64,000 bases of DNA, from contig OY775910.1 of NCBI GenBank assembly GCA_963675245.1, forward strand, positions 928,001-992,000, written 5' to 3'. The DNA is from Acholeplasmataceae bacterium (GTDB lineage: Bacteria > Bacillota_I > Bacilli_A > Acholeplasmatales > Acholeplasmataceae). Each line of letters starts with the position of its first letter. The first letter of the stretch is position 1. The position numbers and the translations under genes are program-made. Below the pieces are notes generated by a model. The model ran no database searches. It was given only the letters and a program-made list of their open reading frames with translations, and had not been told where the DNA came from. Positions 4,818 to 63,593 of this stretch are shown one piece after another.

Positions 4818-4834
4818 CAATACAAACCATTAAA

Positions 4835-5078
4835 TCAATGAGTGGAAGTAGTAAATTATTTTTTCGTAATCAAAGAGAGTCGGGTATGGTGAAAACCGAT
4901 ATTACAAAAATAATCGAATGGATCCATGAGAGAAAATCCGAAATGTAGGATTTTACGGGTGCTCCCGTTATAGAGCTAGGATATGATCGTATCCGATGAG
5001 GGTTCTTTATAAGAACTAAAAAAAGGTGGCACCACGTTAATAACGTCCTTTATGCAAATAGCATATTGGACTTTTTTG
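4835..5078 (+). promoter_or_regulatory. T-box riboswitch, Trp specifier
   Basis: AGTA and AGAGAG stem I motifs; specifier loop GAA-TGG-A (TGG at 4919-4921); antiterminator AAGGTGGCACCACG...CGTCCTT; U-tailed terminator at 5044-5078. Confidence 0.93.
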
Positions 5079-23738: not shown

Positions 23739-23807
23739 AATAACGTAAAAACGTTTTCAACAAATATGGGTATTGTTTTTTTATAAAAATTGACTATAAT
23801 CATATTA

Positions 23808-24140
23808 AGCGATGAACAAGAGTAGTATTGCAATGCGTCATGCCTAGAGAGTTGATGGTCGGTGTAAATCAACGTTACGATTGTAAGAACGTGCTTGGGA
23901 GCTTTTAAATCGAAGTTTTGAGGTTTAAACGTATGCCGGCGTTAACGGTTTGAGTGCTATGATAATCATAGAACTAAGGTGGTACCGCGATATTTTCGTC
24001 CTTAGATTTTTTCTAAGGGCGTTTTCTTTTTGGTACGATCACTTATACATTGTATGAGTTGTTTTATGTTATTGTAGAAACAAGGTGGTACCGCGGAATT
24101 TCCGTCCTTGGCATATATTATGCCAGGGACGTTTTTTTAT
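23808..24140 (+). promoter_or_regulatory. T-box riboswitch, Arg (CGT) specifier, with two antiterminator/terminator units
   Basis: Stem I with GAA-CGT-G (CGT at 23890-92); AAGGTGGTACCGCG at 23976-23989 and again at 24082-24095, each followed by CGTCCTT and a U-tailed hairpin. Confidence 0.9.
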
Positions 24141-32932: not shown

Positions 32933-33009
32933 CGGGAAGTGGCTCAGCTTGGTAGAGCACTCGGTTCGGGACCGAGAGGTCGCAAGTTCAAATCTTGTCT
33001 TCCCGACCA
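32933..33009 (+). tRNA. tRNA-Pro (anticodon CGG), CCA encoded
   Basis: CGGGAAG/CTTCCCG acceptor stem, CTCGG-TTCGGGA-CCGAG anticodon arm, TTCAAAT T-loop. Confidence 0.97.
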
Positions 33010-53276: not shown

Positions 53277-53939
53277 ATGCCACTTATATATTATGTAGAA
53301 GATGATCAAGCAATCAGTCATATCATTGAAAAGACCATTGAAAATGCCAGCTTAGAAGGTCAAGGGTTTTCAACAGGTGAAGCATTTATGGCTGCTTTCC
53401 GGAAACAAAGACCCGATTTTATTTGTTTGGATATTATGCTTCCTGATGTGTCAGGGATTGACCTACTAAAACTCATCCGTAAAGTGGATCGTGATGTACC
53501 CATTATGATGGTTTCTGCATTACAGAGCGAAATGGATAAAGTCATTGCTTTAGATGCAGGTGCTGATGATTATCTGACGAAACCTTTTGGTGTTTTAGAA
53601 TTAACATCCAGAATTAGAGCGAAGTTAAGAAAAACACAAGGTCCTATGACATATCTTTTTAACAATGTCATGATGGATGATCGTAAACATCAAGTTAAAA
53701 TTAATGATGAAGATGTTTACTTCACACAAAAAGAATACGACATTTTAAAATTATTATTAAAAAACGAGCATGATATCGCATCTAGAGAAGCGATTTTTAA
53801 GAGTGTTTGGGATACTGACTTTATCGGTGAAACAAGAACACTTGACATGCATATCAAATCGTTACGAAAAAAATTATCTGAACATGGCGCAGACATAGCG
53901 ATTAAGACTGTACGAGGCGTCGGTTATCATTTAAAATGA
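53277..53939 (+). CDS. phoP: OmpR-family response regulator (PhoP/PhoB)
   Basis: VEDD, LDIMLP, GADDY.TKPF, RTLDMHI..LR.KL, TVRGVGY; lies in the pst operon. Confidence 0.85.
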   Translation: MPLIYYVEDDQAISHIIEKTIENASLEGQGFSTGEAFMAAFRKQRPDFICLDIMLPDVSGIDLLKLIRKVDRDVPIMMVSALQSEMDKVIALDAGADDYLTKPFGVLELTSRIRAKLRKTQGPMTYLFNNVMMDDRKHQVKINDEDVYFTQKEYDILKLLLKNEHDIASREAIFKSVWDTDFIGETRTLDMHIKSLRKKLSEHGADIAIKTVRGVGYHLK

Positions 53940-55621
53940 AAAGGGCAATTATAAGAAACAATCTCTTGTTATTATTAGGAGCGTTTTTTATCTTTTTCAT
54001 CGTTGTCTTTTTTTCTTTATATACATTTGAAAAAAGGAATCAAGAAACCTTTATGGGGTTTTTATTAAACGAAGTCAATATTGCATATGAACAATACACG
54101 GGCACCGATAGTGAATTCGTTGATGATTATGGTTATGAAGATCGTAGAATCACCATTATGGATGAACATGCAGTCGTATTGGCTGATTCACACCATTCAG
54201 AAATAGGTTATGACGAAAGCGATCAATATGAGATTCTTAATTTAGGTCGTGTGGCATCCAGAGAATCTGCACATATCGGTGAACAGTTATTATATATCGC
54301 GATGCAATTAGATGATGGTGCTATCTTAAGAGTATCTATCCCACTTGCAACACAAACAAGATTATATAGCATTATCATATGGACATTAACGTTTGGTACG
54401 GTTGTGATTGGCGTCATTTATTATTATGGCTTAAAACAGGTCAATAAGAATCTTTTAAAACCTTGGAATTCTGTTAAAGAAGGACTGTTAGCATTAAATC
54501 AAGGTAAATATCAATTAATGAGTTTAACAAGCCCTTATCCTGAAATTAATGATATCCTTCATGAAATGAATACGATTAATGAAGAAACGTCAAAACATCT
54601 ATATCAAATTGAAGCCTATCATCATCAACTTGATCGTATTTTAAATAGTTTACAACAAGCAGTTCTATTGTTTAATGGCGATGAGAAGTTGACGTATTTT
54701 AACGCTGATGCAAAAGAACTCTTTAAATTAGATGATGATGACTTAATCGCACCTAGCTATTGGTTTATTAGAGATAATGACTTAAAACAAGCCATTCATG
54801 AAACGAATGTCAGTGGTGATGATTTAATCATGGACGTTTTATATGATGAAATCATATATGAAGTCAAAACGATTCATTTAGAGACAATAGAGGAATTTGG
54901 TGATCAACCTCGTATTCTTGTCATTCTTAAAGATGTGACACAACAAAGGCAACTTGAACAAGTCAAACGCGATTTTATTGCTCACGCTTCTCACGAGTTA
55001 AAATCACCTTTAACGGTTATTAAAGGTAATGCAGAACTGATTGAATTGGATATGTTGAAATCAAAGGAAGACATTAAAAATTCTGCCATTCAAATTAATA
55101 AGCAAACGATTCAAATGACAGCGTTAATTGAAGATATGCTTATGTTATCAAGGCTTGAAAACTTGACAGATAAACCACACGATGCATATGATCTATCTGT
55201 AATCTTAAGCGATGTTGTTGACCAGTTAAGCATAGAAGCGAAACAAAAAGATATGACATTAAATGTAGATGCTTCAAAAGTCACGATGATTTGTGATCCT
55301 CTAGATATACATAAATTGTTTAAAAATCTCATTGAAAATGCGATTAAGTATAGTGAAAATAAAAAAGCGATTCATATTAAATTAAAAAAAGAACAAAAAT
55401 TTATCACGTTTATTGTCAAAGATCATGGCATAGGAATACCCAAAGAACACCAACAAAGAATTTTTGAAAGGTTCTATCGTATTGACAAAGGAAGACTGGA
55501 TAAAGGCACAGGCTTAGGATTAGCCATTGTTAAGCATATCACACATAAGTATCATGGCGTCATTGGTTTGGAATCAAGTCTTCAAAATGGTACAGAAATT
55601 ACGATAAAATTTCATTTGTAG
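53936..55621 (+). CDS. phoR: Sensor histidine kinase (PhoR)
   Basis: Two TM segments, SHELKSPL, NLIENAIKY, DHGIGI, FERFYR, GTGLGL. Confidence 0.87.
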   Translation: MKRAIIRNNLLLLLGAFFIFFIVVFFSLYTFEKRNQETFMGFLLNEVNIAYEQYTGTDSEFVDDYGYEDRRITIMDEHAVVLADSHHSEIGYDESDQYEILNLGRVASRESAHIGEQLLYIAMQLDDGAILRVSIPLATQTRLYSIIIWTLTFGTVVIGVIYYYGLKQVNKNLLKPWNSVKEGLLALNQGKYQLMSLTSPYPEINDILHEMNTINEETSKHLYQIEAYHHQLDRILNSLQQAVLLFNGDEKLTYFNADAKELFKLDDDDLIAPSYWFIRDNDLKQAIHETNVSGDDLIMDVLYDEIIYEVKTIHLETIEEFGDQPRILVILKDVTQQRQLEQVKRDFIAHASHELKSPLTVIKGNAELIELDMLKSKEDIKNSAIQINKQTIQMTALIEDMLMLSRLENLTDKPHDAYDLSVILSDVVDQLSIEAKQKDMTLNVDASKVTMICDPLDIHKLFKNLIENAIKYSENKKAIHIKLKKEQKFITFIVKDHGIGIPKEHQQRIFERFYRIDKGRLDKGTGLGLAIVKHITHKYHGVIGLESSLQNGTEITIKFHL

Positions 55622-55649
55622 CTTTCATTAATTTTCATTAAAAAAAGAG

Positions 55650-55678
55650 TTGAAATATTAAGTCAAATTCTCTATAAT
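55650..55678 (+). promoter_or_regulatory. Sigma-A promoter of the nrd cluster
   Basis: TTGAAA (55650-55), 17 nt, TATAAT (55673-78). Confidence 0.82.
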
Positions 55679-55684
55679 GGATAT

Positions 55685-55810
55685 ACACATCAAATAATGA
55701 TGGTGCATTATGGGGATAAGGCATAATCGAGAGGGCGTGCAGACTAGCTGCAAGTCTTTTCAGTTACCTCTTACACTCATAAAGCATACTATGTATGCTT
55801 TATTTTTTTC
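55685..55810 (+). promoter_or_regulatory. Structured 5' leader with intrinsic terminator and competing antiterminator (unassigned attenuator/riboswitch)
   Basis: Perfect 11 bp stem ATAAAGCATAC/GTATGCTTTAT plus T6, between promoter and first gene; 55703-55714 can pair with 55776-55787. Confidence 0.7.
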
Positions 55811-55830
55811 ATAAAAAGGACTGATAACAC

Positions 55831-56205
55831 GTGGTTGTAACTTATGATACATTAACTGGACAATCGAAACGTTTCGCGACTAAAATCAGTGATCGGATAG
55901 AGGACGTGAATAGATATATTCCCAATCCTGATGACGAAATACTACTCGTTACTAGAACCTTCCGATTTGGCGAAATACCTGATACCACCAAACGCTTCTT
56001 AGACCGCTTTAGCAAGCAGGTTATCGCAGTTTGCGTTTCTGGAAATAAAAACTGGGGAAAAGCCTTCGGTGCTGCAGGTGATAAAATTCAAGCGCAGTAT
56101 GGCATACCATTGATACACAAATTTGAAGCATCTGGTTTTGATACAGATGTCAATATGGTCCAAGCGTGGATAGAAAACTACCAAAATAGAAAAGGGGAAC
56201 AATAG
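55831..56205 (+). CDS. nrdI: Class Ib RNR assembly flavoprotein NrdI
   Basis: YDTLTGQ..RF, T..FGEIP, SGNKNWG..FG.A, KFE.SG...DV. Confidence 0.93.
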   Translation: MVVTYDTLTGQSKRFATKISDRIEDVNRYIPNPDDEILLVTRTFRFGEIPDTTKRFLDRFSKQVIAVCVSGNKNWGKAFGAAGDKIQAQYGIPLIHKFEASGFDTDVNMVQAWIENYQNRKGEQ

Positions 56206-56207
56206 TT

Positions 56208-58169
56208 ATGGCAATGTTTAAGACAACAGAAGATTTAATCAAGAAATTTGTAGGGGCAGAAGAAGATAAGTATACAGATTATTTAAAAAGAGAAAATAGT
56301 AACTTTGTGGTCTCTTTACCACTTTTAAGAAAAAATATCTCCAACAAAGCTGAAGAAGAATATTTAATGAATCATATTTTTCCAAGAAAGCTAGTTGATT
56401 TATATGAAGACGGTGTCGTTTATATTCACGACAAACAACTATCATCTTACTGTCAATCTGTTTCATGTAAAGATGTTGCTACAAAAGGGATTCCATCGAT
56501 TGCTAAAAACATGTTAGAATCTGATGCAGCTTCTTCATTACCAACACTCATTCGTCATTTTTCAAATGTCGTAACGTTAATGAGTCAACAAGTTTCTGGT
56601 GCGGTCATGTTATCACAAATGACAACTGTTATGGCAAGTTATCTTTATGAAGAAGAAATGAATAGACAGTTTTATACCGAACATACGTTAACTAAAATGA
56701 TGTATCAACTTATTTATGAACTTAATTTACCACTTCGTTCTGGTTCAGAAAGTGCTTTTTCAAACTGTACATTAGAATTCGGCAAACCTTCAGAAGAAAT
56801 CAAAGATGAATATGTCATCATTGGTGGTGAAGGTATGAATTACAAATACAGTGATATTCCGAGTGACTATTTTGATCGAATCAATATCGCATTTATCAAT
56901 GCGATGGCAAAAGGAACGAAAAAAGGTATTCCATTAACGTTTCCGCTTATTACCGTGCAAATTGATGATAATTTCAATTATGATAATGATGTTTTCCATC
57001 ACTTATTAGATAGAATGTATCAATGGGGTGGTGTCTATTTTGAAAACTTTAGAACGAGACCTTTTACTGATCATTACTACACGCAATTAAACCCTTATAT
57101 TAAACCAAAAGACCCAAGTGTTTCAAGAAGTTTATGCTGCCGTTTAAATATTGACTTATCCGTTCTTTCCAGAGCTGGTGGTGGTATCTTTGGATCGTCA
57201 GTAGGTAATGTTGGCGCGATTCAAGTCTTGAATTTAAATATGAACCGTATGTTAATTGAATTCGGTCATGATAAAAAATTACTTAAACTAAAAATACGTG
57301 AATACCTGGAAGTGATGGAAGAAGGACACATGGCGAAACGCGCATGGGTCGAAAATCACAAGTTCTTATATCCGACATTCTTCGCATTCAACCACGATCT
57401 TAAAAACTATTTCAATGTCTTCGCCGTGACAGGTATGCATGAAGGGTTGATTAACAGTGGTTATCCAGAAGGTTTAAATGATGAAAATGGTAAACCATTT
57501 GCACATGAACTGATGCAATACATTTCAGAAATCATTAATGACTTTATTGTTCGTGATCATGTCGCTTGTGGTATTGAATATGCTCCTGCTGAAAATGCTG
57601 GTATTAAACTTGCGAGAAGTGATGTCAAGTGGGCAAGAAAAAATGATCGAGAAATCTTTGTTCAAGGACATGACGATGACGTTTATTTAACCTCAGGATG
57701 CATGTTACCATTTGGTGAAGAAGATTTCACGAAACAAGTTGAGAATGCTGCTGAATTCCAAGGTTATGCGACCTCTGGTTCAATTCTTCATCACTTTATT
57801 GAATCAAAGATTGAACCTGAAGTTCTATCGTCATACCTTCAAAATTTATTCTCAAAACCAATTAATTACATTACGCTTACACCAACCATTACGAGTTGCT
57901 TAGAATGTGGTACTAAGATTGTAGCCAAAGATGCGAAAGATGTCGTTACATGTCCAGTATGTGGGTCAACTGATATTGCATCTTACTCACGCGTCATTGG
58001 TTATGTACGTATGATTGCTCGTCAAAATGTAAAAGTTACTGAAGAGGGTTACTATCAGGGAGAATATAATTTCTGGAGTAGAGCTAGACGCCTGGATTGG
58101 GCTCAAAGACGCCGTTTCAATGATAATGATGCAGCACCTAAAGAAGTCGAACAACCATCAGTTGAATAA
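56208..58169 (+). CDS. nrdD: Class III anaerobic ribonucleoside-triphosphate reductase, NrdD2-like, no ATP cone
   Basis: ENSN, YIHD...YC, TFP, SLCCRL, EYAPAE, CLECG...CPVCG zinc site, SRVIGY glycyl-radical loop. Confidence 0.92.
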   Translation: MAMFKTTEDLIKKFVGAEEDKYTDYLKRENSNFVVSLPLLRKNISNKAEEEYLMNHIFPRKLVDLYEDGVVYIHDKQLSSYCQSVSCKDVATKGIPSIAKNMLESDAASSLPTLIRHFSNVVTLMSQQVSGAVMLSQMTTVMASYLYEEEMNRQFYTEHTLTKMMYQLIYELNLPLRSGSESAFSNCTLEFGKPSEEIKDEYVIIGGEGMNYKYSDIPSDYFDRINIAFINAMAKGTKKGIPLTFPLITVQIDDNFNYDNDVFHHLLDRMYQWGGVYFENFRTRPFTDHYYTQLNPYIKPKDPSVSRSLCCRLNIDLSVLSRAGGGIFGSSVGNVGAIQVLNLNMNRMLIEFGHDKKLLKLKIREYLEVMEEGHMAKRAWVENHKFLYPTFFAFNHDLKNYFNVFAVTGMHEGLINSGYPEGLNDENGKPFAHELMQYISEIINDFIVRDHVACGIEYAPAENAGIKLARSDVKWARKNDREIFVQGHDDDVYLTSGCMLPFGEEDFTKQVENAAEFQGYATSGSILHHFIESKIEPEVLSSYLQNLFSKPINYITLTPTITSCLECGTKIVAKDAKDVVTCPVCGSTDIASYSRVIGYVRMIARQNVKVTEEGYYQGEYNFWSRARRLDWAQRRRFNDNDAAPKEVEQPSVE

Positions 58170-58183
58170 GCATATAATTGATC

Positions 58184-58210
58184 AGCATCCCAGTTTGGGA
58201 TGCTTTTCTT
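58184..58210 (+). terminator. Internal terminator-like hairpin between nrdD and nrdG
   Basis: AGCATCCC-agttt-GGGATGCT followed by TTTCTT. Confidence 0.7.
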
Positions 58211-58223
58211 ACAAAGGATAGTT

Positions 58224-58898
58224 ATGAAGCCAATTAAGTATTATGAAAAAATTATTTTCTCACTAAGCGAGATTGAGAACCATCCCGTTCTTTTAGTGCA
58301 TGCGTTAACAGGATGTATGTTTCATTGTTATAAATGTTTCAACTATGAGGAACTCATTGAAAAGAAACATGATAAGTTTTATACCATTGATGATGTCTTA
58401 AAAACGATTGATAGACAAAAGAATATAATTGATTATATTTTATTTAGTGGGGGAGAGTATTTGCTTGCTCCAATTGAAAGTTTAATTCATGATTTAGAAC
58501 AAGTTAGAATGATCACTGATCGTAAAATTATCGTGTATACGACTGGCTATGAATTAGATAAAATGAAAGAACTTGTCAAGAGAAAGTTAATTGATGGTTT
58601 CCATATTGATATGAAACTCCCGTATCATTTATTAACGACAGATGATTTTGACCTCATAAAAAAAACCATGGGGATTCATGTAAAAGATCTAAAATTGATT
58701 CATAAATTAATGGAATCGATTGAATTTGTCGTTCAAAATGATAAGGGTTATAGTCAGGTTCGTTCAGTCAAATATCCATTTTTAGATGAGTCTGCATTTA
58801 TAGAGTGCAAATCATTTATAGATAGGCTTAATCGTTTGTATAATAGAAACATACCTTATTTTGCGAATCGGTTTTTGGATCCGTCTAAGGGGATATAA
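58224..58898 (+). CDS. nrdG: Radical SAM activase of class III RNR
   Basis: GCMFHCYKC (CX3CX2C), FSGGE, IDMK; follows nrdD. Confidence 0.85.
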   Translation: MKPIKYYEKIIFSLSEIENHPVLLVHALTGCMFHCYKCFNYEELIEKKHDKFYTIDDVLKTIDRQKNIIDYILFSGGEYLLAPIESLIHDLEQVRMITDRKIIVYTTGYELDKMKELVKRKLIDGFHIDMKLPYHLLTTDDFDLIKKTMGIHVKDLKLIHKLMESIEFVVQNDKGYSQVRSVKYPFLDESAFIECKSFIDRLNRLYNRNIPYFANRFLDPSKGI

Positions 58899-58914
58899 AT
58901 AAAGGGGTGTTTTT

Positions 58915-61014
58915 ATGGATAGAACGAGTATACCAGAGTGGATTTTACTCAATAATCAAATCGTTGACGAACATGGTGGGATTCGTGATTTGAATAAAGA
59001 TAAGGAAGCAGTAAAATCATATTTTTTAAATGAGGTCAATAAACGAACTCAATTTTTTCATTCGCTTGAGGAACAACTTAACTACCTCATTCGTAATGAT
59101 TATTACGAAGCAGAATTCTTAGCACTATATACGATGGAACAGATTCAAGCCATCTTTGATATCGCTTATCATAAACGTTTCCGTTTTCCTACTTATATGG
59201 GTGCGTTTAAATTTTACAATGACTACGCCTTGAAGTCGCGTGATAAAAAGGTCTTTTTAGAACGGTATGAAGACCGTTTATCTGTAACTGCTTTATATCA
59301 CGCAAACGGTGACTTTGAGATGGCAAAACGTATTATCGAACGTTTAATCAATCAAGATTTTACACCAGCTACGCCAACACTTTTAAATACGGGAAAAAAG
59401 AAGCGTGGTGAATTTGTATCTTGTTTCTTATTAGAAGCAGGAGATTCACTTAATGACATTTCACGTATTTCTGAATTTTCTATGCAGTTATCAAAAATTG
59501 GTGGTGGTGTTTCGATTAATTTAAACAACTTAAGAGCTAAAGGAGAAGCGATTAAAGATATTCCTAATGTATCTAAAGGTGTTGTAGGGGTTGCCAAGTT
59601 GCTTGATAATAATTTCAGATATGCAGATCAAATGGGTCAACGTACAGGGGCAGGCGCTGTTTATTTAAATGTATTTCATGCTGATATTGAAGATTTTTTA
59701 AATATCAAGAAGTTAAACGCTGATGATGATATTCGTGCAAAAACATTATCAATGGGTGTCGTCATTCCTGATAAGATGATTGAACTTGCAAGAGAAAATA
59801 AAGATATGTATGTTTTCTACCCACATACTGTCTTTAAAGCATATGGTAAAGATTTCTCTGATATTTCAATTGATATGAATCACTGGTATGATATTTTAGT
59901 GGATGATCCACGTGTCCGTAAGAGAAAGATTAATCCTCGTAAGCTATTAGACGCGATTGCGTCACTTCAAGGTGAATCAGGATATCCATACATTATGTTT
60001 TCTGATAATGTCAATCGTGTTAACGCTATGGCAGATCCGGTCAAATTTTCAAATTTATGTACTGAAATTCTACAACCAACAAAGACATCACATTATTCTG
60101 ACTATGATAAACATGATGAAGATGAAATTGGTATGGACGTCTCATGTAACCTTGCTTCAGGTCATATGGGTAATATGATTAAACATAACACCATCAAAGA
60201 AACTGTGTTTGCAGCGATGGATGTGATGAACTCCGTATCAGAACAAACAAATATTACATATGTTCCAGCGATTGCAAAAGCGAATCGCTTAAATCGCAGT
60301 GTAGGTTTTGGTATCATGGGTCACCATGGTTTTATTTCTGAAAACTTTATTCCTTATGGTAGTGATGAAGATATTGATTTAGTGGATGTATTCTTTAGTA
60401 TAGTTAACTATTATTCATTAGTTCATTCAATGGAAAAGGCAAAATTAACAAAACTTAAATTTTATAATTTTGAAACATCAACCTATGCTGACGGATCATA
60501 CTTTAATGATCGAAAAGCAGTATATCCAAAAACAGAACGTGTCAAAGAAATCATGAAGGATATCTATGTACCAACAGATGAAGATTGGCGACAACTTAAA
60601 GAAGATGTCATGACATACGGATTATATAATTCTCATCGTCTCGCTGTCGCACCTAATGGCTCTATCGGATATGTCATGAGTGCTACCCCTTCTTTAACAC
60701 CAATTAAACAATTGGTAGAAGAACGTACTTATGGTAATTCTAAAACGTATTTCCCAATGCCTGCATTAGAAACAGCAGAATTTATGTATGAAACTGCATA
60801 TGTGATGGATAACTACAAAGTGATTGATGTCATCGCGACTGCTCAGAAACATGTTGATCAAGGGATTTCCTTTGAATTAGCCATTACATCAGACATTACA
60901 ACAAGAGACCTTCAAAAATATTATTTATATGCACATCATAAAGGGATTAAAACACTTTATTATACGCGCACTAAAAAGTTAAAACTTGAAGAGTGCGAAG
61001 CGTGTGCGGTTTAG
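58915..61014 (+). CDS. nrdE: Class Ib ribonucleotide reductase alpha subunit
   Basis: LNN, ERYEDR, PATPT, SCFLL, GQR.GAG, SNLCTEI, SCNL, TLYY, C-terminal CEAC. Confidence 0.97.
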   Translation: MDRTSIPEWILLNNQIVDEHGGIRDLNKDKEAVKSYFLNEVNKRTQFFHSLEEQLNYLIRNDYYEAEFLALYTMEQIQAIFDIAYHKRFRFPTYMGAFKFYNDYALKSRDKKVFLERYEDRLSVTALYHANGDFEMAKRIIERLINQDFTPATPTLLNTGKKKRGEFVSCFLLEAGDSLNDISRISEFSMQLSKIGGGVSINLNNLRAKGEAIKDIPNVSKGVVGVAKLLDNNFRYADQMGQRTGAGAVYLNVFHADIEDFLNIKKLNADDDIRAKTLSMGVVIPDKMIELARENKDMYVFYPHTVFKAYGKDFSDISIDMNHWYDILVDDPRVRKRKINPRKLLDAIASLQGESGYPYIMFSDNVNRVNAMADPVKFSNLCTEILQPTKTSHYSDYDKHDEDEIGMDVSCNLASGHMGNMIKHNTIKETVFAAMDVMNSVSEQTNITYVPAIAKANRLNRSVGFGIMGHHGFISENFIPYGSDEDIDLVDVFFSIVNYYSLVHSMEKAKLTKLKFYNFETSTYADGSYFNDRKAVYPKTERVKEIMKDIYVPTDEDWRQLKEDVMTYGLYNSHRLAVAPNGSIGYVMSATPSLTPIKQLVEERTYGNSKTYFPMPALETAEFMYETAYVMDNYKVIDVIATAQKHVDQGISFELAITSDITTRDLQKYYLYAHHKGIKTLYYTRTKKLKLEECEACAV

Positions 61015-61022
61015 GAGAGTAT

Positions 61023-62123
61023 ATGCCAAAAACAAAAAAGATAACCAAACCGAATAAACCTTTTTTTGAGCCACCAATCGATTTTACAGGTGGCAATTGG
61101 AATGTGAACGAAGATACATTTACACAGTTTTTCTATGAACAAAATTTAAGTCAGTTTTGGCGTCCTGAAGATATCAGTTTACAACCTGATTTAAACGTGT
61201 GGCAAATTTTACCTGAAGAAGTTAAATTAGCATATGCACAAAACTTATTAATATTAACCTTTTTAGATACCTATCAAGGGGATATAGGCATGCCTGTTGT
61301 GTCTCGCTCAATGGATGAAAAATATCATCAAAGAAAAGCCGTTATTAATTTTATGGCTGCGATGGAAAATGCCGTACACGCGAAAAGTTATTCAAATATT
61401 TTCATGACGTATTTACCTACGACAACTATTGATGAACTATTCAATTGGGGTGAACAAAATGAAAACCTTCAAAATATTATGAGTTTAATCGTTGGCACAT
61501 ACGAAACGTTAGATCGTTATAATTATTTAAAAAAATATGATGCTGAACAAGTGACCTTCTCAACTGAAGATTTTAATGAAGCACAATGGAAGGCTATGGC
61601 AGCGAGCGTCTTTTTAGAAACATGGTTATTCTACAGTGGTTTCTACTATCCATTATATTTTTATGGTCAAGGAAAGCTGATGCAAGCAGGAGAAATCATT
61701 AACTTAATTTTAAGAGATGAAAGTATTCATGGCTTATATATCGGCAGGCTTGCTCAAGAAGTATATGATACATTTAATGATGAGAAACAAAAAGAATTAA
61801 AAATCTGGTTAGATGACCTTCTAGATAAGCTCTATAAGGAACAATCTGCCCTTGTAGAGACAGTTTATGATCCAGTTGACCTCTCGCACGATGTGAAGGT
61901 CTTCGTTCGATATAACGCCAATAAAGCGTTAATGAACCTAGGGTTTGACCAAGCATTTCCAAATGAAGAAGTGAATCCGGTTGTTATTAATGGATTAAAT
62001 ACAGAAACAAAGACAATGGACAATTTCTCAATGAAAGGAAATGGTTATCAAAAAATGAAAAGTGAAATGTTAAAAGATTCAGATTTCTATTTTGACACAA
62101 AGCCAATTGGAGGTAACAAATGA
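61023..62123 (+). CDS. nrdF: Class Ib ribonucleotide reductase beta subunit
   Basis: QFW.PE, LDT.Q, MENAVHAKSYS, FLE..LFYSGF, RDESIHG, RYNANKAL, FSMKGNGY. Confidence 0.96.
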   Translation: MPKTKKITKPNKPFFEPPIDFTGGNWNVNEDTFTQFFYEQNLSQFWRPEDISLQPDLNVWQILPEEVKLAYAQNLLILTFLDTYQGDIGMPVVSRSMDEKYHQRKAVINFMAAMENAVHAKSYSNIFMTYLPTTTIDELFNWGEQNENLQNIMSLIVGTYETLDRYNYLKKYDAEQVTFSTEDFNEAQWKAMAASVFLETWLFYSGFYYPLYFYGQGKLMQAGEIINLILRDESIHGLYIGRLAQEVYDTFNDEKQKELKIWLDDLLDKLYKEQSALVETVYDPVDLSHDVKVFVRYNANKALMNLGFDQAFPNEEVNPVVINGLNTETKTMDNFSMKGNGYQKMKSEMLKDSDFYFDTKPIGGNK

Positions 62124-62383
62124 GTCAGGTTTATATGCTGGCAAAACCAAATTGTCCAAATTGCCAAAAACTTAAAATGTTTTTAAAATTTGCTTTACAA
62201 GATAAATATAAAAATGATATACAAATCATTGATAAAGAAGAACATGCTGATCAATATGTTGACATGGTTAAAAAGTTTCAAGTATTATCAGTACCTGTAT
62301 TAATCCATGGGGATGATGTGTTGGTTCAAGTGGATCCATCTAAGGTAACAAACTTTTTAGAAAAATATATCGGTAAAAAATAA
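62120..62383 (+). CDS. nrdH: NrdH-like redoxin
   Basis: CPNC active site, SVP cis-Pro motif; overlaps the nrdF stop. Confidence 0.8.
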   Translation: MSQVYMLAKPNCPNCQKLKMFLKFALQDKYKNDIQIIDKEEHADQYVDMVKKFQVLSVPVLIHGDDVLVQVDPSKVTNFLEKYIGKK

Positions 62384-62595: not shown

Positions 62596-62741
62596 TCACC
62601 TCTAGACTTTTTCTCACTATTGGTGAGTCAATAAAAAACGGCTAAAAAATGCGATTTGATAAGGCTCAATAGTTGGTTTCTTTGCCGTTACCATTCTGTT
62701 GAGTCGTATCAAGTCGCTTTTTGCTAAAAAGGAGTTTTATT

Positions 62742-63593
62742 ATGGCTAAGAATGATAATACAAAATATTGGTGGATAAAATTGGAAACAAACTTTTTTTA
62801 TCAAAATGCAATTGACTTTTTAATGTCTCAAAAGAATGGAAGTAATTATGTTGTTTTATATCAAATGTTATGTTTGAATTCTGCGAATACACAAGGTCGA
62901 TTAGAGCAAAAAATAGGCGATATGATAGTCAAATATGATGTTGCCAAAATTCAACGCGACACAAAGTATTTTGATCTTGACACCATTAGAGTAGCTTTAG
63001 AATTATACAAAGGATTAGGGCTTGTTTATGAAGAAAAGGACGGTACACTATTAATCATAAATCATGATGAAATGGTTGGATATAAAACCGGTGGTGCAAT
63101 ACGAAAAGAACTTGCAAGAAAATCAAAGAGGGACAATCTAGGGACAAATGTCCCCAAGAGTATAGAGTTAAGAGATAAGAATAAAGATATTAAAGATAGA
63201 GATTTAATAACACCCCCTAAATCCCCCAAGGGATATGTGAGTGATAATAAACTTAAAGAAAATATCTCTATTCAATCTCAATTTGATTTATTTTGGAAAG
63301 AATATCCAAAACACATAAATAAGCAAGCTTCTTATGAGCAATTTAGAAGTATGAAGTTAGATAATGGTATGTTAACTACGCTAATAGAGAATCTCAATAA
63401 ACAAAAAAAGTCTATTGAGTGGTCGCGTGAACAAGGTAGATTTATACCTTCGCCGCAAAAATATTTAAAAGGTAAGTTATGGGAAGATGAGCTAACTTAT
63501 CAAATAACAGTTGGTCAACTAGGTGTTGATGAAGAAATAGAACGTCAAATGGATAATATATTCAAAAAACTACCATTTGGCAAAGGGGCATGA
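62742..63593 (+). CDS. Phage replisome organizer (replication initiator)
   Basis: KYWWIKLETNFF N-terminus, low-complexity linker with PPKSP, F..FW.EYP...K...W......FIP.P..YL....WED C-domain; AAGGAG SD. Confidence 0.85.
   Translation: MAKNDNTKYWWIKLETNFFYQNAIDFLMSQKNGSNYVVLYQMLCLNSANTQGRLEQKIGDMIVKYDVAKIQRDTKYFDLDTIRVALELYKGLGLVYEEKDGTLLIINHDEMVGYKTGGAIRKELARKSKRDNLGTNVPKSIELRDKNKDIKDRDLITPPKSPKGYVSDNKLKENISIQSQFDLFWKEYPKHINKQASYEQFRSMKLDNGMLTTLIENLNKQKKSIEWSREQGRFIPSPQKYLKGKLWEDELTYQITVGQLGVDEEIERQMDNIFKKLPFGKGA

Follow-up and report, generated by a model that had tools for sequence, protein, structure and literature searches.

We analyzed a 64,000-nt stretch of the genome of an Acholeplasmataceae bacterium (contig OY775910.1, forward strand; hereafter the window, whose positions are used throughout) and focused on the region at 55,685-55,810, immediately upstream of a cluster of ribonucleotide reductase (RNR) genes. 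The genome, designated G000, is 1.63 Mb in size and 99.96% complete. We interpret the RNA leader predicted from this region as a cis-acting, four-segment transcription attenuator of the whole RNR operon, transcribed from its own promoter and most likely responding to a trans-acting effector, a reading to which we assign a probability of about one half. RNR sets the supply of DNA precursors, and most bacteria control it through NrdR together with ATP-cone allostery. Here, both reductases and all of their helper genes sit behind one strong terminator in a genome in which neither NrdR nor an ATP cone was detected. The leader probably turns the synthesis of DNA precursors on and off in a lineage in which the usual regulator was not found.

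A total of 209 nt separate a gene for a PhoR-like histidine kinase (53936-55621) from nrdI (55831-56205, GTG start). The promoter (55650-55678), of the sigma-70 type, consists of a -35 box TTGAAA at 55650-55655, a 17-nt spacer, and a -10 box TATAAT at 55673-55678, matching the consensus at 11 of 12 positions. It is followed by a leader of about 125 nt in which a small hairpin at the 5' end precedes a long irregular one of 73 nt (55709-55781) and a terminator with a T6 tract (55779-55809). The presumed RNA 5' end, ACAC, forms segment 1; in the predicted folds it is followed by the small hairpin P0, in which CAUCA (55688-55692) pairs with UGAUG (55698-55702), so that this part spans 55685-55702. 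Segment 2 (55703-55717) was delimited by complementarity and conservation and contains the antiterminator strand GUGCAUUAU and then the invariant G-run, GGGGAU (55712-55717). In both the minimum free energy (MFE) and the centroid predictions, the long hairpin is built from the stems UAUGGG/CUCAUA, UAAGG/UCUUA, UAAU/GUUA, and GAGAGGGC/GUCUUUUC, with the apical stem UGCAG-ACUAG-CUGCA at 55738-55752. Segment 3 (55776-55789), composed of the pyrimidine tract CUC and the terminator 5' arm (AUAAAGCAUAC), can pair with either segment 2 or the terminator 3' arm. The terminator, T2, has an 11-bp stem, the loop UAU, and a U6 tract at 55804-55809. The nrdI ribosome-binding site AGGA (55817-55820) and the GTG start codon at 55831, which we aligned to the ATG of the relative G005, occupy 55817-55833. 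According to Pfam, the genes downstream (55831-62383, plus strand) are nrdI, an nrdD without an ATP cone, an nrdG-like radical-SAM activase, nrdE, nrdF, and an nrdH-like thioredoxin-fold gene.

A preliminary description of this region, made from the letters of the window, had proposed a terminator/antiterminator leader of no known class ahead of the RNR cluster; the results below support this core idea and extend it to five genera. Every sequence element it named is present at the coordinates given, among them the promoter, the CATCA/TGATG pairing, the terminator ATAAAGCATAC-TAT-GTATGCTTTAT (55779-55803) with its T6 tract, and two inner stems, GAGAGGGC/GTCTTTTC and TGCAG/CTGCA. The two strands it had set against each other, GTGCATTATGGG (55703-55714) and CTCATAAAGCAT (55776-55787), are complementary at 11 of 12 positions. 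A further competing hairpin that it proposed, ATAATG (55694-55699) with CATTAT (55706-55711), exists here and, by eye, is kept in the relative G006 but not in G005.

 Between the T tract and the nrdI start, the window has 21 nt that carry AGGA, and the corresponding gap measures 20-25 nt in the 14 homologous leaders described below, where it contains the ribosome-binding site and no further promoter. Because there is no room for a second promoter before nrdI, the operon appears to be expressible only through read-through of the leader terminator.

The terminator has the layout of an intrinsic terminator, with a predicted stem-loop (11-bp stem, 3-nt loop) directly before the T6 tract. A terminator scan of 55000-56500 returned three sites, compared with 0.6 ± 0.6 in shuffled sequences, and the leader terminator ranked first with 11 pairs. 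Across the 14 leaders, 98.4% of cells in the stem AAGCAUAC/GUAUGCUU are paired, and six of the nine pairs never vary. The loop or spacer between the invariant arms varies in length from 2 to 7 nt, and this variation argues for an RNA hairpin rather than the operator of a dimeric DNA-binding protein. The operator reading was rejected on this ground and because the palindrome is unique in the genome, as is the G-run motif.

To determine how widely the leader occurs, we searched related genomes. In BLAST searches against 61 genomes, only G006 (87%) and G005 (82%) gave full-length matches, and the other seven genomes of the genus matched at the terminator alone. Inspection of the loci nevertheless revealed a homologous leader between phoR and nrdI in all 10 genomes of the genus (including G000), the seven further loci having the order phoR, promoter, a 130-156-nt leader, and nrdI-nrdD. 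The aligned blocks within the genus are RUGCUU-AA-GGGGAU, the apical hairpin followed by GUUCUUUUUU or GUCUUUUC, a C/A-rich stretch, and the terminator. NrdI is 57-61% identical between the two clades of the genus, while the RUGCUU strand and the G-run are kept and their flanks diverge.

Beyond the genus, one of 20 nrdI loci from other genera carried the leader (G019, a second genus). A covariance model of the core (R1) applied to 151 family genomes recovered its 11 training sequences and two additional genomes, G024 and G025 (E-values of 7.8e-4 and 1e-3), in which the leader is preceded by a TTGnnn-17-TATAAT promoter and followed by an nrdD that encodes an ATP cone according to Pfam. We inspected another 20 regions upstream of ATP-cone nrdD genes and found the leader in one, that of G026, whose first gene was assigned to the ATP-cone type by 77% identity to the N-terminus of the G024 NrdD. 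In total, 14 leaders were identified in five Acholeplasmataceae genera among approximately 190 family and order genomes searched. All of them have a promoter of their own and lie directly before the first RNR gene, which is nrdI in 11 genomes and an ATP-cone nrdD in three. Because the leader precedes ATP-cone nrdD genes in G024, G025, and G026, it appears to travel with RNR genes rather than with phoR or nrdI. This also bears on the rationale of the preliminary description, which had linked the leader to the absence of ATP cones: both reductases in the window do lack the cone, but the same leader stands before cone-bearing enzymes in these three genomes.

Wider searches returned no further members. 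The covariance model gave only weak hits, to ordinary terminators or coding sequence, in 151 genomes of the order and 40 genomes of G024 relatives, and seven of the eight weak hits within the family (all but the one in G083) were inspected and found to be unrelated. A pattern scan of GTDB contigs yielded no new leader among the matches listed (80 loci), and a scan of metagenomes yielded four loci without a new leader, two of which were copies of the G004 and G005 leaders. The family samples were drawn from larger groups, and these negative results apply to the genomes searched. Within the 1.63-Mb genome the leader is single-copy, its other matches being A/T-rich pieces of at most 25 nt; a repeat or mobile element, such as a hairpin resembling repetitive extragenic palindromes (REP) or miniature inverted-repeat transposable elements (MITE), was rejected because only one full-length copy exists.

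The promoter call rests on conservation, because promoter-like sites were not enriched near the locus (10 observed in 55000-56500 against 6.9 ± 2.9 expected from shuffles). The arrangement TTGnnn-17 nt-TATAAT is present ahead of all 14 leaders. In 12 of them, ACA occurs at nucleotides 7-9 past the -10 box (55685-55687 in the window); G025 has ACC instead, and in G026 the triplet is shifted by one base. These observations suggest a transcription start about 7 nt past the -10 box. Just 5' of the -35 box (approximately 55626-55649), we also observed a conserved A/T-rich box, which reads ATTTTCATTAAAAAAAG in the clade of the window, G019, and G024, and ATTTACAAAAAAAG in the remaining members of the genus. 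A palindromic box resembling TGTAAGCATTTACA takes its place in genera g14 and g19 and in G026. The conserved box could be an UP element or the site of a DNA-binding regulator.

The predicted fold of the leader is unusually stable. The RNA from 55685 to 55812 folds at -41.2 kcal/mol (z = -5.38; none of 200 dinucleotide shuffles folded as well) into a 5-bp 5' hairpin, the 73-nt irregular hairpin, and the terminator. A hairpin comparable to the long one was predicted in all 13 other leaders folded. The z-scores ranged from -1.1 to -5.7 and were -2.3 or lower in nine of 13 leaders folded. The sequence, internal loops, and helix lengths of this hairpin differ from clade to clade, yet it still folds, with helix-level replacements visible by eye, such as UAUUUA/UAAAUA, UUUUAG/CUAAAA, and UUUAAG/CUUAAA. 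When MFE pairs were mapped onto a five-sequence MAFFT alignment, the inner helices and the terminator alone were in register. The MAFFT alignments do not hold the helices of the long hairpin in register. After the apical hairpin, GUUCUUUUUU is conserved in six of the seven genus-mates outside the G000 clade, its counterpart in the clade of the window being GUCUUUUC.

To examine the alternative pairing as polymerase would encounter it, we folded each leader only up to the terminator loop. In 12 of the 14 leaders, at least six of the 9-10 bases of the terminator 5' arm were already paired upstream in these prefix folds. In the window, six of nine arm bases pair with GUGCAUU, a level that mononucleotide shuffling of the upstream part matches in 19% of cases, so that in one sequence the pairing by itself does not exceed chance. 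In 10 of the 14 leaders, the arm pairs with the strand next to the G-run (GUGCAUU, UGUGCUU, AUGCUUU, UGGGUGCU, or, in G026, UGUGUGUUCA). The arm pairs with the RNA 5' end in addition to the homologous strand in G019, with the RNA 5' end alone in G003, and with a strand just past the first G-run in G025. The seven-pair RUGCUU/AAGCAY helix forms in 83.3% of 96 cells across the 14 leaders, compared with 23-62% when the partner is slid, and it includes one compensatory pair, from A-U to G-C in G026.

In the 11 leaders compared, the terminator state was more stable than the antiterminator state by just 0.9-8.2 kcal/mol. When the terminator forms, the freed RUGCUU strand is predicted to pair with the first bases of the RNA, as in ACAC/GUG in the window, CACAGC/GUUGUG in G009, and ACACAU/AUGUGU in G026. 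This pairing of segments 1 and 2 amounts to about 3 bp in the G000 clade.

Upstream of the terminator, the G-run (GGGGAU) and RUGCUU are the sole strongly conserved blocks, and the columns of the G-run are invariant or nearly so in both alignments that we used (A3, 11 leaders; A5, 14 leaders). Outside the terminator, A3 contains four invariant columns (G15, T58, T59, and T81) and A5 contains three. The partner of the G-run is the pyrimidine tract just 5' of the terminator, which varies among species (CUC, CCC, AUCCU, CUUC, CCCUU, CUUAUCC, and others) and always offers C or U to the Gs. The motif, WRGGGGAU, occurs in one to three copies per leader, and some copies lie in hairpin loops, as in GCAU-GGGGAU-AUGC (G009) and CUAUA-GGGGAU-UAUAG (G001). 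It is not the ordinary type of ribosome-binding site in this genome, where GGGGA precedes 2.5% of open reading frames and AGGAG precedes 27%. Because the G-run is invariant despite a variable partner, is present in one to three copies per leader, some of them looped, and is an uncommon type of ribosome-binding site, its pattern suggests that it is recognized as a sequence by something else.

Motifs of the WRGGGGAU type are found not only in the leader but also in ribosome-binding sites that precede RNR genes in the family. The G-rich motif AAGGGGAUAU precedes nrdD in G024 and nrdI in G015, and GGG[GA] is found in 13 of 20 nrdD upstream regions (nine of the 20 from one genus), compared with 13.6% of crude open reading frames in the genome of the window. 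By analogy with CsrA-type control, this distribution suggests that a trans-acting factor has binding sites in the leader as well as at the ribosome-binding site. Elsewhere in the genome, hairpins with GGGGAT loops gave five non-coding candidates, none of them leader-like and at least one an ordinary ribosome-binding site. A scan of non-coding sequence for C-rich partners of the G-run hit rRNA, tRNA, terminators, and reverse-strand ribosome-binding sites alone, and a search for small RNA partners found no homologue of RsaE/RoxS.

Taken together, these features can be arranged into a four-segment mechanism. Segment 1 corresponds to the RNA 5' end (ACAC), segment 2 to RUGCUU with GGGGAU, segment 3 to the pyrimidine tract with the 5' arm (AAAGCAUAC), and segment 4 to the 3' arm with the U tract, which allows 1:2, 2:3, and 3:4 pairing. 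In the proposed sequence of events, the G-run and the pyrimidine tract would pair and close the long hairpin immediately beside the terminator arm. From this closed hairpin, the helix would zip into the emerging 5' arm while the 3' arm is still unmade, and the resulting 2:3 antiterminator would allow read-through into nrdI-nrdDG-nrdEF. If segment 2 were instead held by segment 1, or if a factor occupied the single-stranded G-run, the 3:4 terminator would form and transcription would stop about 21 nt before nrdI. In that state, P0 would extend onto the GUG of segment 2 and serve as an anti-antiterminator. The effector would be a trans-acting factor, most likely a protein, that recognizes the one to three WRGGGGAU copies and favors termination, following a logic like that of TRAP, PyrR, or CsrA-type control. 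Such a factor would supply the feedback that NrdR gives elsewhere. What the data show directly is the anatomy of the leader, its conservation, its energetics, and its exclusive association with RNR genes, whereas the transcription start, the read-through, the direction of switching, and the effector with its nature are inferred.

Several known systems resemble parts of this arrangement. The PyrR-pyr and TRAP-trp systems of Firmicutes are protein-dependent terminator/antiterminator leaders. Like them, the RNR leader is promoter-proximal, has an upstream strand that would compete with the terminator 5' arm and a possible earlier anti-antiterminator pairing, and carries a short conserved purine-rich motif, repeated in several leaders, on or beside the competing strand. 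It differs in its lack of a PyrR match in Rfam, in its motif, which is WRGGGGAU rather than (G/U)AG repeats or the PyrR loop, and in its RNR target genes. With CsrA/Rsm leaders, it shares G-rich motifs ending in GGAU, one to three per leader and some in hairpin loops, and the use of a similar motif as the ribosome-binding site of RNR genes in relatives. However, CsrA was not found in the genome, and control here would act through a terminator and not primarily through occlusion of the ribosome-binding site. The proposed 1:2, 2:3, and 3:4 pairings that end in an intrinsic terminator recall attenuators of the trp type, whereas the RNR leader has no conserved leader peptide, uses the RNA 5' end as segment 1, and places a hairpin of about 70 nt between segments 2 and 3.

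Several results weigh against the attenuator reading. Neither helix is supported by statistics of sequence change: the terminator stem has no compensatory pairs in the 14 leaders, and the antiterminator shows no statistical covariation, shuffles reaching its observed score in 137 of 500 trials. That control was not exceeded because both strands are nearly invariant, so that the support for the antiterminator appears to be conserved complementarity at a conserved place rather than covariation. The comparison of relatives that the preliminary description had suggested thus found the leader and its alternative pairing kept, but not the covariation. In addition, sequestration of the arm was reached by 3-39% of shuffles per sequence in the 12 leaders that show it. 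The prefix folds paired just three of nine arm bases in G008 and none in G002, and both G002 and G003 carry a decoy, AAGUAC, two bases 5' of the terminator that captures the RUGCUU strand. RNAalifold predicted the terminator alone from the MAFFT alignments, and the 14 leaders are relatives and not independent samples. No candidate RNA-binding regulator emerged from searches of the genome for CsrA (PF02599) and CAT_RBD (PF03123), whose controls matched in three and four genomes, respectively. Finally, the leader terminator is also the first terminator downstream of phoR, which ends at 55621, and it may share a role as the terminator of the pst/pho operon.

The last of these points leads to an alternative in which the leader senses nothing: the hairpin would stabilize or process the RNA, and a leaky constitutive terminator would end pst-pho transcripts and fix RNR expression at a low level. 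The absence of any terminator between phoR and the leader is consistent with this view, as are the lack of a predicted antiterminator in G002 and the lack of statistical covariation. However, in G025 the leader and its promoter follow a gene that does not encode a histidine kinase, so the leader moves with RNR genes, and in the genus RUGCUU and the G-run are kept despite the divergence of their flanks and of NrdI. Moreover, the terminator arm can be sequestered in 12 of the 14 leaders, and the operon would stay unexpressed unless polymerase passes an 11-bp stem with a U6 tract. Because this explanation leaves the leader's own promoter, the conservation of RUGCUU, and the movement with RNR genes unexplained, we consider it unlikely.

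A metabolite or ion riboswitch, in which the long hairpin and the G-run would form an aptamer for a dNTP, deoxynucleoside, NTP, or metal and shift the balance between 2:3 and 3:4, has a comparably low standing. The leader has the usual position and architecture of a transcriptional riboswitch, it is associated solely with RNR genes, in five genera, and neither NrdR nor an ATP cone was found in the genome. Precedent also exists in Mesoplasma florum, where RNR genes are reported to be controlled by a 2'-deoxyguanosine (2'-dG-II) riboswitch (PMC3159443, PMC5435998). That system is likewise an RNA leader controlling RNR by termination in a wall-less, small-genome relative of Firmicutes, but it is built on the three-way junction of purine riboswitches, whereas the present leader is one long irregular hairpin without a purine hit in Rfam. 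The other evidence is also unfavorable to an aptamer. There are few invariant bases outside the terminator, hairpin loops and helix lengths are clade-specific, no multi-helix junction is formed, and the distribution is narrow (14 of approximately 190 genomes). With few conserved bases and unconserved internal loops, the leader looks less like a metabolite aptamer than like an attenuator that is kinetic or depends on a factor.

Searches for known RNA families gave the same picture. Rfam 15 assigned no family to 55500-56000 at E ≤ 10, apart from one meaningless NRON hit of 10 bits, and gave no hits at E ≤ 1 in 11 related loci. As a control, the scan recovered T-box leaders at 4829-5053 and 23803-24006 (130 and 142 bits) and a tRNA at 32933-33006 in the window, all on the plus strand. 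The view of the preliminary description that the region matches no known RNA class thus held in the Rfam search that it had proposed, and known families (cobalamin, purine/2'-dG, PyrR, T-box, Mn2+, cyclic di-AMP, and others) were rejected because no covariance model matched.

We then considered the protein regulators of RNR. NrdR (TIGR00244) had no hits in the genome and exceeded the cut-off in none of 151 family genomes, while the control found it in nine of 14 known genomes. With a consensus for the tandem 16-bp NrdR boxes and up to three mismatches, a single match occurred in the window (22117) and none near 55600-55830, in agreement with the earlier failure to match a box at the leader. 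On these grounds NrdR control was rejected. NrdR with its boxes would resemble the proposed attenuator in having all RNR operons as its target and in the presumed feedback on deoxynucleotide supply, but NrdR is a DNA-binding ATP-cone protein. With the ATP-cone domain (PF03477) likewise found nowhere in the genome, the modules through which RNR control usually senses nucleotides all went undetected. A leader controlled by CsrA and antitermination of the BglG/LicT type, acting at a ribonucleic antiterminator (RAT), were likewise rejected because PF02599 and PF03123 had no match. ANTAR (PF03861) also had no match in the genome, but its control matched nowhere and the search was uninformative. At the level of listings and abstracts, the literature search returned nothing linking Acholeplasma, ribonucleotide reductase, and riboswitches, and nothing linking NrdR, Mollicutes, and RNR regulation.

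Sensing of NTPs by RNA polymerase itself requires no factor, since start choice or elongation speed, depending on NTPs, would set the presence and pairing of segment 1 and hence termination. Pyrimidine genes offer precedents in pyrC and pyrG for such "repression without a repressor". The placement of ACA at nucleotides 7-9 past the -10 box in 12 of 14 leaders, which makes segment 1 the very 5' end of the RNA, is in line with this explanation, and GUUCUUUUUU after the apical hairpin resembles a pause site. Nevertheless, segments 1 and 2 share only about 3 bp in the G000 clade, and there is no homopolymeric initial sequence for reiterative transcription; overall, we regard this route as quite unlikely.

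The leader could also be an independent gene for a trans-acting small RNA of about 125 nt, with the nrd genes expressed by incidental read-through. Its own promoter, stable fold, and strong terminator would suit such a gene. Against this, it lies in every case immediately before the first RNR gene and in the same orientation, across a gap of 20-25 nt without an intervening promoter, and it has moved with RNR genes to different first genes, which makes a separate small RNA very improbable.

Ribosome-mediated attenuation through a short upstream open reading frame over the antiterminator strand, the alternative mechanism offered by the preliminary description, is the least credible of all: although the G-run looks like a ribosome-binding site, is followed after 8-11 nt by an AUG in six of 11 leaders (G009, G007, G001, G004, and G008, and G019 by eye), and MMVHYGDKA exists here with MIVHYGDKA in G006, the frame is shifted in the close relative G005 and has no counterpart beyond G006, the peptides of other species being MYK*, MINTYIYV*, or 33 codons long, no start at a workable spacing is seen by eye in the G000 clade, G002, or G003, and GGGGA is rare as a ribosome-binding site in the genome. 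A leader-peptide attenuator was accordingly rejected, as these frames differ in phase, length, and sequence between species. The 33-codon frame, found in G009 and G007, starts 11 nt past the G-run, spans both hairpins, and ends in UAAUG over the nrdI start; in G004 and G008 the equivalent AUG is followed by a stop after three codons (MYK*, by eye).

If the four-segment attenuator is indeed regulated, it would be the principal point known at which this lineage controls deoxynucleotide synthesis, and its effector would reveal how nucleotide status is sensed in a minimal genome. More tentatively, and with less than even odds, the leader may be the first representative of a hitherto undescribed regulatory RNA specific to RNR. 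In a family in which NrdR was not found, and in a genome in which an ATP cone was not found either, such an RNA would have taken over deoxynucleotide feedback, through either a nucleotide-related ligand or a new WRGGGGAU-binding regulator. With short sequences and explicit alternative pairings, the question is directly testable.

Other leaders were observed before RNR genes in the same family. In genus g14 (L231-L236 and L239-L241), a different conserved leader of about 120 nt without an obvious terminator precedes an ATP-cone nrdD. It begins with AUACUCAA-CAUC, forms a long hairpin whose arms change together between species, and runs through a near-invariant GAUGGUGAUUAGUAnCUCUAAACAAUAUGUGAAAAG(A)GGG into the start codon; L241, the one locus of this type scanned, had no Rfam hit. 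This leader shares AUAC..CAUC and GAUGGUG.AUUA with that of the window and, judging from these matches, may be a diverged relative with a different output. A third type of leader, seen before nrdD in genus g19 (L237 and L242), closes with a terminator that has a long stem, ...CAGAGCGUUUUUUUUGUACCCAAAA. Leaders with a terminator seem to be common ahead of RNR genes in this family, in which NrdR was not found.

The RNR genes themselves showed further peculiarities. The first 200 residues of the cone-less NrdD (56208-58169) are 87-97% identical across the genus and G019, and the neighboring NrdI is 57-82% identical within the genus and 50% in G019. This type of NrdD was seen in just those 11 of the 151 family genomes, suggesting either unusually strong constraint or recent spread. 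Of the 29 genomes of genus g2, all small (0.4-1.1 Mb), 28 have their NrdI match within an open frame of 823-878 aa and the other has it in one of 137 aa, which suggests that NrdI is fused to a larger RNR subunit. Directly after the nrdH-like gene of the window, an open reading frame with the N-terminal domain of a phage replisome organizer (62721-63593, plus strand) may mark the edge of a prophage or mobile element.

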